Virus record (IMG/VR): IMGVR_UViG_3300032167_000028
DNA from: a virus
Taxonomy: Duplodnaviria > Heunggongvirae > Uroviricota > Caudoviricetes
Strand: one strand, 5' to 3'
Length of the DNA: 64,000 nucleotides
Shown here: positions 11,144 through 55,849 of the stretch, piece after piece
Position numbering within the stretch: the stretch's first letter is position 1
Layout of the letters: every line of letters begins with the position of its first letter
Notes under the pieces: generated by a model
What the model was told of the DNA's origin: nothing
Databases searched by the model: none
Seen by the model: only the letters and a program-made list of their open reading frames with translations
Position numbers and translations under genes: made by a program

Positions 11144-13555
11144 TCAAAAATTTTGGGACATAAGTTCTGATAACTAATTTACTAAATCAGCGAAATTCAT
11201 CATATAATACATTTTGATTTTTGTTTGTTTTACTGCATTATCACTTTCACGTCTCCAATCTGCTTCGGTATTTCCTGGATATTTACTACCAACATTGTAA
11301 CCATAAATCTAAGTGCGGACTGTACTTTCAGAAAGATTGCGTTTATAAAAATTTCCATTTGTTTTTATTTCTTGCATGTGTTTATACAATTCTTCAAGGA
11401 TATAAGATTGAGGAATATAAACACCATTAATAACATATAGATGTATTTCCTAGACAGAGTTTGTCTTTCCTATTTCTTGAGCACTTTCTGCAAAAGCTTG
11501 AGATACCATTAATTGAGCATCATCAAACATTAAATAAGAAGCAAAAAGAGAAAAATAATTTTCTAGTGAAGAACGGTTTTTAAAACCTAATAGACCAAGA
11601 CCACTGTTAATTAAAGCAAATTTTAACCACTCAGCATCATCTTGAACATCTAGTACATGAGCCTTTTTACCCATAGCTAAAATATTATCTATTACACTAA
11701 AACCATTATTATCTTTACCCATTGCGCCGCCAGAAAAACCAATTCCGCGTTCCCTCATTTTAGTTCCTGGAACAAAAGTATCTAATAAACCAGACTGATC
11801 TTTTACTGTTGTAAGAACGTTATATTGAGTTAAAATTGCTTTAGCTCCCTATTCTTTTTTAGCAATGGAATTAGCTAAAGCTTCTAGTTTAGCTAGCTGT
11901 TGTCGACGAATTTCTTCAAAAGCTTCCGCATTATGCGTATAATCCTTTACAGAAGCTTCACGTCTTATCCATAGACTTTTCTAAGAGTCTTTAGAATGAT
12001 CATAAGCTTTTTGTAAAATAGAATCCATTTCTTCTTGTGCCTCAATAAGTTCTTTCTAAAGTCCTTTTAATACTTTCTGTTTTTCTTGTATTGGAGCATC
12101 ATCATACTCTAATTCGTAATTAAAATATCCTAGAATACTATCAACTTTTGGATTACCTTTAGGACGATATCCTTTACCAAGAACGGTATTTCCTTCTTTT
12201 CCAATCATTTGTTCGATAGCTTCTTGTATGGTTCTTTCTTCAGAATAATAATAAGTTTGTCGAATAGAAGAAGTAATTGCCTCATTAATCGCAGTTTTAG
12301 ATAGGGCATTATTTAACTAATATCTCTCTGTCAACCATTGCCTAAATTCTTTATTGGTGGAACTTATAGCTTTACTTTTCCAACCTCTACTCTCTCTATA
12401 AGCCTATTTTTCACGTTCATCTTTAGCGAGTTGGTCTAATATTTTTGTCATTATTCGTTCCGCGTCTTTATCAGATTGTTTTATAGACTCTCTTAAAGCT
12501 TTTTGCTCTTCATCCTCTGCGGGGACATTTAAAGAATCCATGTAACTATTGGTTCGTAGTAGAGCTTCTACCTTGTCTTCAATTGATTTTTCATCTAATG
12601 TATCCAATGCTGTTTCAAAACGTTTCATTCTTTCTTTGCTATTACTATTTAAGAAATTTTTGGCTGTGCCATTTTCAGTAATATAACGTTCTTTTAAATC
12701 TTCAGTAACAATTTGTTCAATAATCCACATTAACAGTTCTCGTAAAACAGTTTGAATAATAGCTACATTAAAGTCAACTTTATTAGTAGAAAGATTTATT
12801 TTTAAAGCTTTAGTAACATAAGGTAATAATTTCTTTTCAGCTTTTTCAGCGAAACTGCGGCCAGAACCAGTAAATAATTTATTAGCTCGTTTACTTATTT
12901 CTCCTAAAGAACGAGCAATGGTCATCATTTGTTTTTGGTCAGTTGGACGACCAGCACGTCCTTTTGTACCCCAATATAAATCTTCAGCTAATTTATTATA
13001 GTACTAAATTTTATCATCGTAGTTTACACCTTCTCGGGCCGCCCTTCGTTCAAAACGTTTGGCAGCGTTTACATATTTCTACTAAAGTTCTTTACTACTT
13101 AGTACTCGTTCAATATCAATAGCACTCCAACGTTCTGCTTCATGTCTTATTTGTAAATAAGCCTATTCAGTTCCTTTCTAGGCTTCATTAAGAATTTTAA
13201 TAATTTCAATAAAATTCGCATTTTCTGGGTTAGAAGGAAATTCTATTTCTAATACTTCACAAGTTTTTCGCAGCCATTCTAATTCTTTCTTTCTTTCGTT
13301 GTTGGCGGCGACCATTAAAAAATTAATTGCTTTATCTACCGCAGAATCCTAAAAATTAGGATTTAATTTAGTAAAGCCAATATTATTTAAATATTTCTAT
13401 ACTTCTTCACCTATAACACGATTCATTGCAAACTGTTCATCATCACCAGAAAGTAAGCTTGTATAGTAAATATAATTATTTTTTAAACCTATTCCCAAAG
13501 AAGGGAAATAATTTCCGCTACTAACTTGAGGAGGACCTTTCTTTTTCTTTGCCAT
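11144..13555 (-). CDS. ~803-aa helical/coiled-coil hypothetical protein (possible virion protein), interrupted only by TAG codons
   Basis: Manual translation: one frame from ATG 13555 to TGA 11144 with at least 15 in-frame TAG and no TAA/TGA. It joins track ORFs 13397-13609, 12404-12928 and 11450-11758. Confidence 0.85.
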
Positions 13556-13593
13556 AAAATCACCTAAAAAAATAAGTGAGTAGATTTCTCTAC

Positions 13594-13989
13594 TCACCAA
13601 ATTGTCCAAGCATAATCAAAATGCTTTTGATAACCATTATGTTGCTCCATCTCAGGATCAAAATCATCCCAGTCTTCTTCATCTAAACGATAGAAGCTGT
13701 TTATTTTCTCACGCCAATGACGACGGATAACAGAATTGGTTTCATTCTTAGCATATTGACGCGGCCCGGTGAGATAGAAAGTTCGCCAATACTGAAGAGC
13801 ACTGGGAATATGTCTCACAGGTCCATAGGAGTAATTAAGTTCATCTTCAGTAAGTGAAGCACAATATTCTGGATAATTCATTCCAGAGTAAGCTCCATAA
13901 TGCCAACGTTTAGCGAAACGATTTTTTACTTCGTCCTTATGACGGCACTTACCATGATAGCGAGAAACTTTGCGTCCGTTTTCGTACAT
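13594..13989 (-). CDS. hypothetical protein
   Basis: ORF with AGGAG RBS. Confidence 0.6.
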   Translation of the reverse strand: MYENGRKVSRYHGKCRHKDEVKNRFAKRWHYGAYSGMNYPEYCASLTEDELNYSYGPVRHIPSALQYWRTFYLTGPRQYAKNETNSVIRRHWREKINSFYRLDEEDWDDFDPEMEQHNGYQKHFDYAWTIW

Positions 13990-15177: not shown

Positions 15178-15252
15178 TGGCTGGGGATGCTGGATTTGAA
15201 CCAGCGAATACGGGAGTCAAAGTCCCGTGCCTTACCGCTTGGCGAATCCCCA
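15178..15252 (-). tRNA. trnQ: tRNA-Gln(TTG)
   Basis: U1-A72/G2-C71/G3-C70/G73, loop CTTTGAC. Confidence 0.93.
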
Positions 15253-17386: not shown

Positions 17387-17460
17387 TGGCAGGGGTTATA
17401 AGATTCGAACTCATACGAGCGGTTTTGGAGACCGATATGCTACCATTACATCAAACCCCT
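17387..17460 (-). tRNA. trnW: tRNA-Trp(CCA)
   Basis: Cloverleaf, loop CTCCAAA. Confidence 0.92.
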
Positions 17461-28701: not shown

Positions 28702-28765
28702 AAGACCCAATTTCATATAGTATCACTTTTGCAAAGTAAAGAAATTAAATTGCTGTCAGGGTCTT
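28702..28765 (-). ncRNA. CAGCAA-module small RNA, copy H (short, anticodon-like GCA hairpin)
   Basis: AAGACCC-TGA-CAGCAAT ... GGGTCTT; internal TTACT TTGCAAA AGTGA. Confidence 0.65.
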
Positions 28766-28768
28766 ATG

Positions 28769-28866
28769 TGGCTGGGGAGAAGGGATTCGAACCCTTACAT
28801 TACGGGTCAGAGCCGTACTTCCTGCGGTTTTAGAGACCGTTTTCTTGCCAATTAGAATACTCCCCA
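28769..28866 (-). tRNA. tRNA-Gln body with two tandem anticodon arms (CTA amber suppressor + CTG)
   Basis: TGGGGAG TA TTCT AATTGGCA AGAA A [ACGGT CTCTAAA ACCGC] AGGAAG [TACGG CTCTGAC CCGTA] ATGT AAGGG TTCGAAT CCCTT CTCCCCA GCCA. Confidence 0.8.
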
Positions 28867-28968
28867 ACGAAGGATTCTAATAAAAGGTATTTTTATTCAC
28901 CCTTTCTAAATTAGTTTTTTCCCAATCAACTATAATATTATAACAAAAATTTTTGAAAAAATCAAATT

Positions 28969-29742: not shown

Positions 29743-30657
29743 TTATCCTACGGTTGCCTGACCTAAGAGTTCCGCAAGACGCTTCGCCTCCTGTGCAGAT
29801 GCACACTGAATCTTTACATAGTAAGTTTCAGTTACAGCTTCGCCGCCTTCCTGCTTTACAAGGAACTTAGACATCATATAACCGGTTTTATTATCATAAA
29901 CGATTTGGCACCAATCACCGGCTTCCTCAACAACATCTACAAGAGCACCAATTGGTACCTTCTTAATAATATCACCGCTGGTAGATGGGCCGGTACGCAT
30001 ATTTACAGTAGAACCGCTAGAAGCAGTAACCTTTGCAGAATATAGCACTTTAATCACATCCTTATTATCAATAATTTCTTCTTCCTTAATTAAGGATTTG
30101 TCCATTTCAATTGGATTACCCTTACTGTCGTAAAGGCCTTTCATAATTGCATAGTGAGTCCAAGACTTATATTGTTTATTGTCAGTCTTTACAACACCAC
30201 TATCGTGTCCTTGGGCATGGTAAGCAATTCCATTATAATACCAACCTACATGTTGTTTAGTTCCTAAAGAATCTCGGAATACACAACATAATTTATCTTG
30301 TGGCACATTTTTAAACTTACCTTTCTCTGTCCAAATATCACTCTTCCATTGAGAAGTTGCACCAGAAACAACATCATTAATTCCTACTGCTTTAGCACCC
30401 CAACGGATAAATTGTGCACAATCATAAGCAGACTTGGCTTTTAATTGTTCATTGTCATACCATTTACATCCCTTACAATTAGATGCAGAACCATTTAAAA
30501 CTTGACAATTATTGGTTATATTCTTCTTATATTTTGGATATTGTTCAATTCTTTCTTTACGATAAGAGACTGTACAATCTTTCTAAGTGGCTCCATAAAT
30601 ATAAGGATTACCTATACGATTCTACATCCATTCTAATAGGTATTCCACTTTTGTCAT
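29743..30657 (-). CDS. NlpC/P60-like peptidoglycan peptidase with SH3b domain (2 in-frame TAG)
   Basis: ATG 30657 with AGGAGG RBS; GNPYIYGA, AYDCAQF, HVGWY..HAQG catalytic pattern; C-terminal VNMRTGPST...W..I.Y..KTGYM. Confidence 0.82.
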
Positions 30658-30669
30658 TTTTATTACCTC

Positions 30670-31227
30670 CTATTTGTTTTTTAAATAGGTTCCTGGAAAA
30701 TAAAATGCTAAAATTTCTTCATAAGTCTAGCCAGCAGCAGCTCGATTTTTTGCTCCATTTTGACTCATTCCAACTCCATGTCCTCCTCCAGAACCATTAT
30801 CATATGGATCCGGTTGAGAAATTAAATAAGGAAAATCTCCGCCCCAACGAGCTTTAGAAGAAGTTGTTTGTCCGCCATTTGATGAACTATAATAGCATCT
30901 AGCAATATTATTTCCATAGTAAAGCAATTGGCCAGCAGTTTTTTCAACTCCAGCATAAGCATTAGGATAACCAGTTAATCTTGAAGCACGATAAGCCTAA
31001 TCTTTAGAAGATTGATCTGAAATTTGAATATAACCCTTATCCTTTTTTAAACGAGACATAGCAAAGTTGCGGGCGGCAACAGCTTGGGCCGCACATGCCT
31101 CAATATGGGCATTACCAACTTCACTAGGTACGACGCCTTTTAAATATTCTTCTAAATCTAATTCAACTTGTGATGTACCAAAATATTTAATATTCTCATC
31201 CCGGGAGAATGATATCAGGACTTTCAT
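30670..31227 (-). CDS. SpoIID/LytB-family lytic transglycosylase (2 internal TAG, ends at a third TAG in frame with next gene)
   Basis: LEEYLKGVVPSE, AQAVAAR, D....Q(TAG)AY, YSSSNGG, GHGVGMSQNGA, YEEILAFYFPG. Confidence 0.85.
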
Positions 31228-55754: not shown

Positions 55755-55849
55755 GTGGGTAGGGTAGGATTCGAACCTACATCAAGGAATGTTTCACTCA
55801 CATATACTCCTTCTAAGGTGAGAAGCTTTACCAATTAAGCTACCTACCC
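55755..55849 (-). tRNA. aberrant tRNA-like gene, anticodon undetermined
   Basis: Acceptor GGGTAGG/CCTACCC, canonical D- and T-arms; expanded, poorly paired anticodon/variable region; ends ACA. Confidence 0.55.

Follow-up and report, generated by a model that had tools for sequence, protein, structure and literature searches.

GlnRS and TrpRS lean heavily on the anticodon, which is the very part of a tRNA that a suppressor must alter. How a tRNA can read a stop codon and still be charged by such an enzyme is the question raised by the locus described here, where a single tRNA gene encodes two anticodon-type arms. The gene lies in a stretch of 64,000 nucleotides of Caudoviricetes DNA (IMG/VR record IMGVR_UViG_3300032167_000028; G+C content 36.5%), referred to below as the window.

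The tRNA gene and the origin of its parts

ARAGORN predicts 33 tRNA genes in the 64-kb window, all of them on the minus strand. The gene at 28769-28866 (-) is reported as a 98-nt tRNA with the anticodon CUA and is the sole CUA tRNA among the 33, in agreement with the initial annotation, which had found no other amber-decoding tRNA in this stretch. The label 'Pyl' attached to the gene by ARAGORN is due to the CUA anticodon and to nothing else. The Rfam tRNA model (RF00005) is matched over its full length with 54 bits, against a gathering score of 29, and a 24-nt insertion is placed in the variable region, between the anticodon arm and the T arm. The minimum-free-energy fold of the 98 nucleotides is a cloverleaf with five helices. 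The two tandem stem-loops (CTA and CTG) that had been read from the letters are present in the fold and in the sequence itself.

The molecule, encoded throughout on the minus strand, begins with the acceptor strand UGGGGAG (28860-28866), which pairs with CUCCCCA (28773-28779) and is completed by G73 (28772) and an encoded CCA end (28769-28771). The acceptor pairs U1-A72, G2-C71 and G3-C70, together with G73-CCA, are present in the sequence as previously claimed for a glutamine tRNA. The D arm, UUCU-AAUUGGCA-AGAA (28842-28857), is of class-I type with 4 bp in the fold, its helix being invariant in the lineage described below; U10 replaces G10, and the pair 10-25 is U-A. The decoding arm, hereafter arm 1, has the sequence ACGGU-CUCUAAA-ACCGC (28824-28840). 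Its loop of 7 nt presents CUA (28831-28833) with U33 and A37, and its position 27.43 is an A.C mismatch, so that the stem is of 4 bp. The linker AGGAAG (28818-28823) leads to the pseudo-anticodon arm, hereafter arm 2, UACGG-CUCUGAC-CCGUA (28801-28817), with five perfect base pairs and CUG at 28808-28810. A second linker, AUGU (28797-28800), whose last U could form a 15-48 pair with A15, connects arm 2 to the T arm AAGGG-UUCGAAU-CCCUU (28780-28796), which is found both in the fold and in the lineage alignment. The variable region amounts to 27 nt. Both stem-loops had been described as complete at first; this holds for arm 2 and had to be refined for arm 1 on account of its A27.C43 mismatch. Deletion of either 23-nt block does leave a tRNA of 75 nt, as had been pointed out. 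About 70 nt upstream of the tRNA, at 28937-28965 (-), a putative sigma-70-type promoter (TTGATT-17-TATAAT with a TG extension) is recognized by consensus match only, and sigma-70-type promoters are likewise seen at the neighbouring tRNA cassettes. The tRNA region also contains CAGCAA small-RNA and insert elements, which were considered as candidates for a processing system; the tRNA(CUA) has no such motif, and one element is located directly downstream of it.

The provenance of these parts was established by arm-by-arm comparison and not by ranking of the whole body, for which Trp, Ile, Gln and Arg isotypes all come near the top across the family of related tRNAs. Two further genes of the window, both called by ARAGORN, served as references: tRNA-Gln(UUG) at 15178-15252 (-), with the anticodon loop CUUUGAC, for the acceptor and arm 2, and tRNA-Trp(CCA) at 17387-17460 (-) for arm 1. 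The acceptor is identical to that of tRNA-Gln(UUG), UGGGGAU/AUCCCCA-G, at six of seven pairs, with G73 common to both. Arm 1 matches the tRNA-Trp arm UCGGU-CUCCAAA-ACCGC at 15 of 17 positions, one of the differences being the change of C35 to U. Anticodon loops of tRNA-Gln in these phages are either CUUUGAC or CUCUGAC, and the loop of arm 2 therefore reproduces a genuine tRNA-Gln(CUG) loop letter for letter; the whole arm resembles phage tRNA-Gln arms such as CACGG-CUUUGAC-CCGUG. Without arm 1 the sequence is closest mostly to phage tRNA-Gln; without arm 2, canonical CUA suppressors of phages and tRNA-Trp come nearest. It follows that arm 2 is no copy of arm 1. By these comparisons the tRNA appears clearly chimeric, with a Gln acceptor, a Trp-type decoding arm and a Gln-type second arm. 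An earlier suggestion that the gene is a duplication intermediate in the birth of a suppressor finds no support here, the two arms matching tRNA-Trp and tRNA-Gln, respectively, and not being copies of each other, and the design being stable across dozens of divergent phages.

Reading of TAG and dependence on the host

In-frame TAG codons are absent from most open reading frames of the window and present in some minus-strand genes. The lysin gene at 29743-31227 (-), identified by its open reading frame, by matches to SpoIID and SH3 domains and by homologue alignment, contains five of them, and an 821-aa open reading frame found by ORF scan at 11144-13609 (-), for which a Pfam search gave no match, contains 15. 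Both are candidate clients of the suppressor. In the lysin, TAG codon 77 is aligned with Q in 116 of 116 homologues, and the same column is encoded by CAG (29 genes) or CAA (19 genes) in 48 bacterial SpoIID genes of the standard code. At the variable lysin sites that hold TAG in the window or its close relatives, CAA or CAG is found in other phages at 7 of 10, and between lysin genes of related phages TAG exchanges mainly with CAA and CAG. The use of TAG as a sense codon, as first annotated, is borne out, and the lysin alignments together with the bacterial codons indicate that TAG is glutamine in this phage.

In two complete related genomes, both strongly recoded at TAG, the two-arm tRNA is the only CUA tRNA. 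When TAG was counted as sense in these two genomes, coverage by open reading frames of at least 150 aa rose from about 0.5 to about 0.8. One complete genome (G001) has a tRNA-Gln(CUG) of its own besides the two-arm tRNA. No GlnRS or GluRS catalytic domain and no GlnRS anticodon-binding domain were found in five complete phage genomes of the family, among them the two just mentioned. The metagenome-assembled genomes that hold the closest bacterial relatives of the lysin (Eubacteriales and Christensenellales) encode a true GlnRS in all cases, and may serve as a weak pointer to the host. The conclusion that the tRNA would be the amber suppressor of the phage, and arm 2 a retained and conserved Gln-anticodon arm in its variable region, is supported by the reading of TAG as Gln and by the covariation of the arm in the family, as detailed in the next section.

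Recurrence and covariation of the second arm

Contigs related to the window were chosen by their near-identical lysins. All of them carry a CUA tRNA at the same place, directly after tRNA-Ser(CGA). The 98-nt allele was found again in an independent sample (L148:6109-6206) with one different base in the D loop, and an allele of 90 nt was found in six contigs (L001-L004, L147 and L149). The latter has another D arm, another acceptor and a shorter arm 2, GCC-CUCUGAA-GGC; despite the differing stems, CUCUGA is common to the second loop of both alleles. Lysins of 97% and 94% identity go with the 90-nt allele and one of 91% identity with the 98-nt allele. The alleles do not track lysin identity and the tRNA cassette has therefore been exchanged. 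The comparison of the locus in related recoded phages, which had been proposed as a check, accordingly reveals two alleles at one place, both with a second arm.

A metagenome scan for the C38-type loop yielded five further relatives of the 98-nt allele from other samples. The search pattern included the loop motif and left the stems of arm 2 free. These stems are CACGG/CCGUG (two relatives), CUACC/GGUAG, CCAGG/CCUGG and CGCGA/UCGUG, to be compared with UACGG/CCGUA in the window: each of the five pairs of arm 2 varies in both strands, and pairing is kept in all cells. No other helix of the molecule covaries as strongly in this lineage. The linker AGGAA is invariant and position 27.43 of arm 1 is unpaired in six of seven members. 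In one relative the loop of arm 2 is CUUUGAC (UUG). A paralogue located in a tandem pair (L287:476-573) has the loop UCUUAAC and breaks the G36 rule set out below. An assembly chimera, which was the artefact to be checked, is ruled out by the copy in L148, one base different, and by the five lineage members from other metagenomes. A BLAST search of the tRNA against GenBank phages returned a single match of 38 nt at chance level, and an exact search of IMG/VR with a 38-mer gave no match.

In order to collect more distant tRNAs of this kind, IMG/VR was scanned for a Trp-type CUA arm and a T loop located 18-46 nt apart, with no constraint on the intervening sequence. The scan produced 62 loci on large phage contigs, whose long CUA tRNAs fall into two groups. 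In one, of 15 distinct sequences, a class-II D arm is combined with variable arms of differing form. The other, of 29 distinct sequences including that of the window, has class-I bodies whose variable region forms a hairpin. The loop of this hairpin follows the pattern N-U-(C/U)-U-G-N-N in 29 of 29 (CUCUGAA, CUUUGAA, UUCUGAG, CUCUGAC and similar): U35 and G36 never vary, only C or U is seen at position 34, and a single member lacks U33. CUG and UUG are the two glutamine anticodons. As a comparison, among about 95 long-arm tRNAs for Ser, Leu and Tyr at the same loci, 8 have U(C/U)UG in their variable region; the pattern in the family exceeds chance.

When the stems of arm 2 are aligned in the register of a 7-nt loop, 76.8% of cells are paired, against 36-60% in controls where the partner strand was slid, and the covariation score reaches 0.554, the same controls staying at or below 0.23. 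Each of the three inner pairs is represented by three or four pair types. RNAfold often closes loops of 3-4 nt in arm 2 of family members. A register with such shorter loops was considered and is ruled out by the slid-partner control and by the window lineage. Pair 1-72 is weak or mismatched throughout the family, being always U-A, A-U, U.U or A.C, and G10 is present in most relatives, unlike in the window allele. The stems of arm 2 in the family are often of 3 bp or contain mismatches, and some members have C37. The window allele, with 98 nt, has the longest arm of the collected set; with its cognate-anticodon loop of 7 nt and covarying stem it belongs to the two-arm suppressors. As judged from these alignments, the two-arm design is recurrent, conserved and covarying in recoded phages. 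Canonical 75-nt CUA suppressors with no second arm also occur in related phages, in some cases next to a two-arm gene.

A parallel arrangement was found in long UCA tRNAs, which were collected by a directed scan and then by an unbiased one. UCCA, containing the Trp anticodon CCA, is displayed in the variable hairpin of 34 of 47 distinct sequences, and the remaining 13 look like selenocysteine tRNAs. Many of the 34 have a 5-bp stem and the loop CUCCAAA, that is, a copy of the tRNA-Trp anticodon arm; G32 and 9-nt loops are also often seen. No Gln-type loop occurs among the 47. Conversely, UCCA in long CUA tRNAs was only met as part of the stem of a class-II-type arm in the one case inspected. 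The anticodon mimic is absent from the Sec tRNAs and from the class-II-bodied CUA tRNAs scanned. SerRS ignores the anticodon, as do the synthetases of Sec tRNAs and class-II-bodied CUA tRNAs. In the sets scanned the mimic therefore tracks the inserted amino acid (Gln with CUA, Trp with UCA) and is confined to cases in which the synthetase depends on the anticodon.

Possible role of the second arm

We lean slightly towards a division of labour in which arm 1 would decode UAG and arm 2 would display the Gln anticodon bases to the charging enzyme. The suppressor would be transcribed from its own promoter and fold as a normal L-shaped tRNA. On the ribosome, arm 1 (CUA) would pair with UAG and late genes such as the lysin would be read through as Gln. 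The CUA anticodon would cost the tRNA its G36, which is among the bases on which GlnRS depends most, and the second hairpin, held in the variable region by short unpaired linkers, would restore an intact Gln anticodon loop (C/U34, U35, G36). The anticodon-binding domain of the host GlnRS would dock on arm 2 while the acceptor end (weak U1-A72, G2-C71, G3-C70, G73) sits in the active site of the enzyme, and the rate and specificity of glutaminylation would be raised by this docking. We infer from the comparisons above both that arm 2 is read by GlnRS and how the arm might reach the enzyme. GlnRS is a monomer and binds along the inside of the tRNA L. The main difficulty for docking would be that the tip of the variable arm lies far from the anticodon pocket; with this geometry, arm 2 would have to displace arm 1 or to lie beside it. 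The single-stranded linkers that flank arm 2 might give the needed freedom. Charging may alternatively proceed through the GatCAB route. Taking the two families together, we see about an even chance that recoded phages have combined a decoding arm with an identity-bearing pseudo-anticodon arm in separate tRNA families, for Gln/UAG and for Trp/UGA.

The identity rules of GlnRS comprise U35, G36, a weak 1-72 pair, the pairs 2-71 and 3-70, and G73, both UUG and CUG isoacceptors being accepted (PMC9976931). By these E. coli rules the window tRNA has the weak 1-72 pair, G2-C71, G3-C70 and G73 in place; it departs from them in the U35/G36 combination, as the decoding arm has U35 but A36, and in G10-C25, which is replaced by U-A. 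G36 is provided by arm 2 only. GlnRS accepts CUA tRNAs with a weak 1-72 pair and G73, and suppressors of the supE and Su7 types are charged unaided (PMC9976931). Since single-arm CUA suppressors exist and since these two types are charged by GlnRS without help, the second arm is not strictly required.

Several other explanations of the second arm were weighed. Arm 2 could be read by an anticodon-loop-specific factor other than a synthetase, for example a modification enzyme of tRNA-Gln, a host anticodon nuclease or defence protein that is decoyed, or a phage protein, and charging would then rely on U35 and the acceptor end only. The conservation of the loop demands a specific reader and names none, the geometry is awkward for a monomeric GlnRS, and CUA suppressors with weak 1-72 and G73 are GlnRS substrates already (PMC9976931). 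This explanation is nevertheless unlikely, though not negligible. The mimic matches the inserted amino acid in two unrelated systems, Gln/CUA and Trp/UCA, for which separate ad hoc readers would be needed, and it is absent where the synthetase ignores the anticodon, as would be predicted of an identity element. A role of the long arm as a mainly negative element that blocks mischarging by TrpRS or other enzymes, with the loop sequence of secondary importance, we regard as improbable: Trp-like features are seen in arm 1 and in parts of the body, CUA retains C34 and A36 of the Trp anticodon and long variable arms are known discriminators (PMC7609411), but a steric block would leave unexplained why U35 and G36 are invariant and why position 34 is always C or U, and the same type of arm, with CCA, is found in opal suppressors that are expected to be charged by TrpRS itself. 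Finally, the long variable arm, G73 and the Pyl label that ARAGORN derives from CUA could suggest a SerRS-charged suppressor of class-II type or a tRNA-Pyl, which is hardly credible. TAG stands at Gln positions and exchanges with CAA and CAG, the D arm is of class-I type and the junction linkers are long (6 nt and 4 nt); neither the class-II D arm nor the tight variable-arm junction nor the serine of a tRNA-Ser type is found. The hallmarks of tRNA-Pyl are a 3-nt variable loop, an elongated anticodon stem and G1-C72 (PMC7609411), to which the U1-A72 pair, the 27-nt variable region and the 4-bp anticodon stem of the window tRNA are opposed, and it does not qualify as one.

The remaining explanations concern the coexistence of the two arms. 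In a two-headed tRNA either arm would serve as anticodon, giving decoding of both UAG and CAG or a regulated balance between them. In the lineage, arm 2 is a full anticodon-type arm of 5 bp and 7 nt with U33 and A37, each arm is canonically connected on one side, and ARAGORN finds tRNA-Gln(UUG) and no tRNA-Gln(CUG) in the window. We consider this quite improbable, as arm 2 in the family often has 3 bp or mismatches and in some members C37, and G32 and 9-nt loops are frequent in the Trp counterpart, all of which fit ribosomal decoding poorly; moreover, G001 has a tRNA-Gln(CUG) in addition to its two-arm tRNA, and no competing secondary structure is present. For the window allele the pair probabilities of the two hairpins are about 0.85 and about 0.6, and a swapped pairing of the arms accounts for about 5% at +2.5 kcal/mol. 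The swapped pairing is impossible in the 90-nt allele, where the needed similarity of the stems is missing. A bistable folding switch is ruled out, since both hairpins coexist in the ensemble. The alternatively folded switch that had been imagined as timing the code change therefore gains no support from a pairing that is minor in one allele and absent in the other, nor from a promoter that is ordinary and resembles those of the neighbouring genes. It is also conceivable that arm 2 is a neutral leftover from a duplication, insertion or recombination in the recent past, or that the gene is an assembly chimera or a pseudogene. The two stems of the window allele share ACGG/CCG, and phages whose lysins are 91-97% identical carry either the 98-nt or the 90-nt allele at this locus, as in a cassette exchange. 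Against this very improbable origin stand the presence of the gene in independent samples, the covariation of arm 2, which exceeds that of any other helix, the preservation of the loop across very different tRNA bodies and the complete recoded genomes in which no suppressor other than the two-arm tRNA is found.

The window tRNA can be placed among known systems as follows. The code 15 gut phages (Borges et al., bioRxiv 10.1101/2021.08.26.457843; Peters et al. 2022, PMC9523058), in the parts of these accounts available to us, are likewise large gut or rumen phages with a phage-encoded CUA tRNA, use TAG as Gln mainly in lysis and structural genes, as here, and are assumed to rely on charging by the host GlnRS, as proposed here. 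In the same parts the suppressors are listed with no second anticodon-type arm described, unlike in the present case, and the mode of their charging is left open (bioRxiv 10.1101/2021.08.26.457843). Among the suppressors of E. coli, Su7 is a tRNA-Trp whose CCA has become CUA and which is charged with Gln, arm 1 of the window tRNA being likewise of Trp type with C35 changed to U, and supE is a tRNA-Gln whose CUG has become CUA, with a Gln-type acceptor as here (PMC9976931). Both are single-arm point mutants of 75-76 nt in which nothing restores G36, unlike in the window tRNA. A literature search found no natural tRNA described as having a second, cognate anticodon arm. The nearest case is an allo-tRNA (Mukai 2020, PMC7590224) with the same layout, in which a variable-arm hairpin shows the cognate anticodon and a CUA arm decodes. 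With a GUG pseudo-anticodon in the variable arm, histidylation increased modestly when the HisRS bore an additional, fused anticodon-binding domain, and a distance problem was noted by the author (PMC7590224). That system is synthetic, concerns His and needs the extra fused domain, whereas the window tRNA is natural, concerns Gln and would, in the reading proposed above, be served by an unmodified host enzyme.

In class II tRNAs (Ser, Leu, bacterial Tyr and Sec), too, a further helix separates the T arm from the anticodon arm and aids recognition by the synthetase, as proposed here. In these tRNAs the length and orientation of the arm are read, in a largely sequence-independent manner, and the D arm is of class II and the junction tight; the window tRNA has a conserved loop sequence, a class-I body and long linkers. 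Hairpins with an anticodon loop that are bound by the cognate synthetase outside a tRNA are known from the thrS operator of E. coli and from viral tRNA-like structures such as TLS-Tyr of BMV (PMC10870377, PMC11791061). These mimics are located in mRNAs or viral genomes and serve regulation or replication; they are not the second arm of a decoding tRNA. The phage opal tRNA(UCA) with a CCA second arm (e.g. L163, L169 and L189) shares the architecture of the window tRNA: in examples parsed by eye, the decoding arm, a linker of about 4-6 nt, a 5-bp arm with the cognate anticodon and a linker of 3-4 nt precede the T arm. The opal two-arm tRNA serves another amino acid and another stop codon, and TrpRS is a dimer.

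The conserved second arm with the original anticodon provides a concrete and directly testable hypothesis of charging. If true, it would amount to a new natural principle of tRNA identity and to a natural and general way to reassign a codon while keeping an anticodon-dependent synthetase, and would imply that GlnRS and TrpRS can read an anticodon loop outside its canonical position. It would also explain why some suppressors are missed by tRNA finders or mislabelled as Pyl, Sec or type II, and would offer a ready-made design of suppressor tRNA for genetic-code engineering. The window allele is a good test object in this respect, with its complete 5-bp arm 2 and the exact loop of tRNA-Gln(CUG). 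What the window contributes to the family as a whole is the longest and most complete arm 2, a lineage in which all five pairs of this arm covary, two alleles that have been exchanged at one locus, and a chimeric make-up.

Short anticodon stem of the suppressor and of tRNA-Trp

A mismatch at 27.43 leaves an anticodon stem of 4 bp both in arm 1, the decoding (CUA) arm of the suppressor (28824-28840, minus strand), and in the phage tRNA-Trp (17387-17460, minus strand). In the suppressor lineage, comprising the 98-nt allele and its close relatives, this mismatch is retained in six of the seven members, and C27.U43 is encountered in many members of the wider family of class-I-bodied long CUA tRNAs with a Gln-type second arm. 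The reading of stop codons by tRNA-Trp has been linked to short anticodon stems (PMC13092985).

Other long CUA and UCA tRNAs

At some of the viral or metagenome loci (L-numbers) collected in the scans, a single-arm CUA tRNA of canonical form, in which U1 and C72 are mismatched and G73 is present, is located 3-4 nt from a two-arm CUA tRNA; its length is 75 nt in L005, L010, L012, L014, L017 and L018, and 78 nt in L019 and L020. Both kinds are therefore kept by some phages. Two-arm CUA tRNAs also form a tandem pair (L287:476-573 and L287:724-820), one of which displays the arm-1 loop CUCUAAC and, in the variable-region hairpin (arm 2), the loop UCUUAAC, with UUA rather than YUG. This tRNA is possibly a copy in decay, or else a variant of different specificity. 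In the 100-nt CUA tRNAs of L061 and L064, the variable hairpin loop UUCUAA holds CUA and not a Gln anticodon.

Other long CUA tRNAs of phages (L030, L033, L035, L036, L044, L046 and L050, among others) form a second group, in which the D arm is of class II (GGCAGAGYGGTT...), position 73 is mostly G, and the variable arms are ordinary and devoid of any anticodon mimic. These tRNAs resemble amber suppressors of the Ser or Leu type, which raises the question of the meaning of TAG in the corresponding phages.

Among long UCA tRNAs, the opal suppressors of L197, L207, L247 and L259 have a class-II-type D arm, and yet the loop of their variable arm contains UCCAA; the Trp mimic, a CCA anticodon-type hairpin, is thus not confined to a single type of tRNA body. 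Apparent selenocysteine tRNA genes, with a UCA anticodon, a GG-start acceptor and a long arm without mimic, were also observed on viral contigs (L202, L203, L210, L214-L216, L221, L225, L228, L240, L243, L244 and L246).

Further features of the window

Directly 3' of the suppressor CCA end lies an element of about 64 nt (28702-28765, minus strand) that is closed by AAGACCC/GGGTCTT and has CAGCAA close to its 5' end; it belongs to the dispersed elements noted in the initial annotation for the tRNA region. After it comes TTGACA-17-TATAAT (28692-28664, minus strand), the promoter that serves the following tRNA.

A tRNA-like gene of 95 nt (55755-55849, minus strand) received no assignment from ARAGORN ('anticodon ta'). 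Its acceptor, D and T arms are normal, an unpaired stretch of 11 nt occupies the place of the anticodon arm, and the variable region forms a long composite hairpin (AAGGA..AUGU-GAGUGAA-ACAU..UCCUU).
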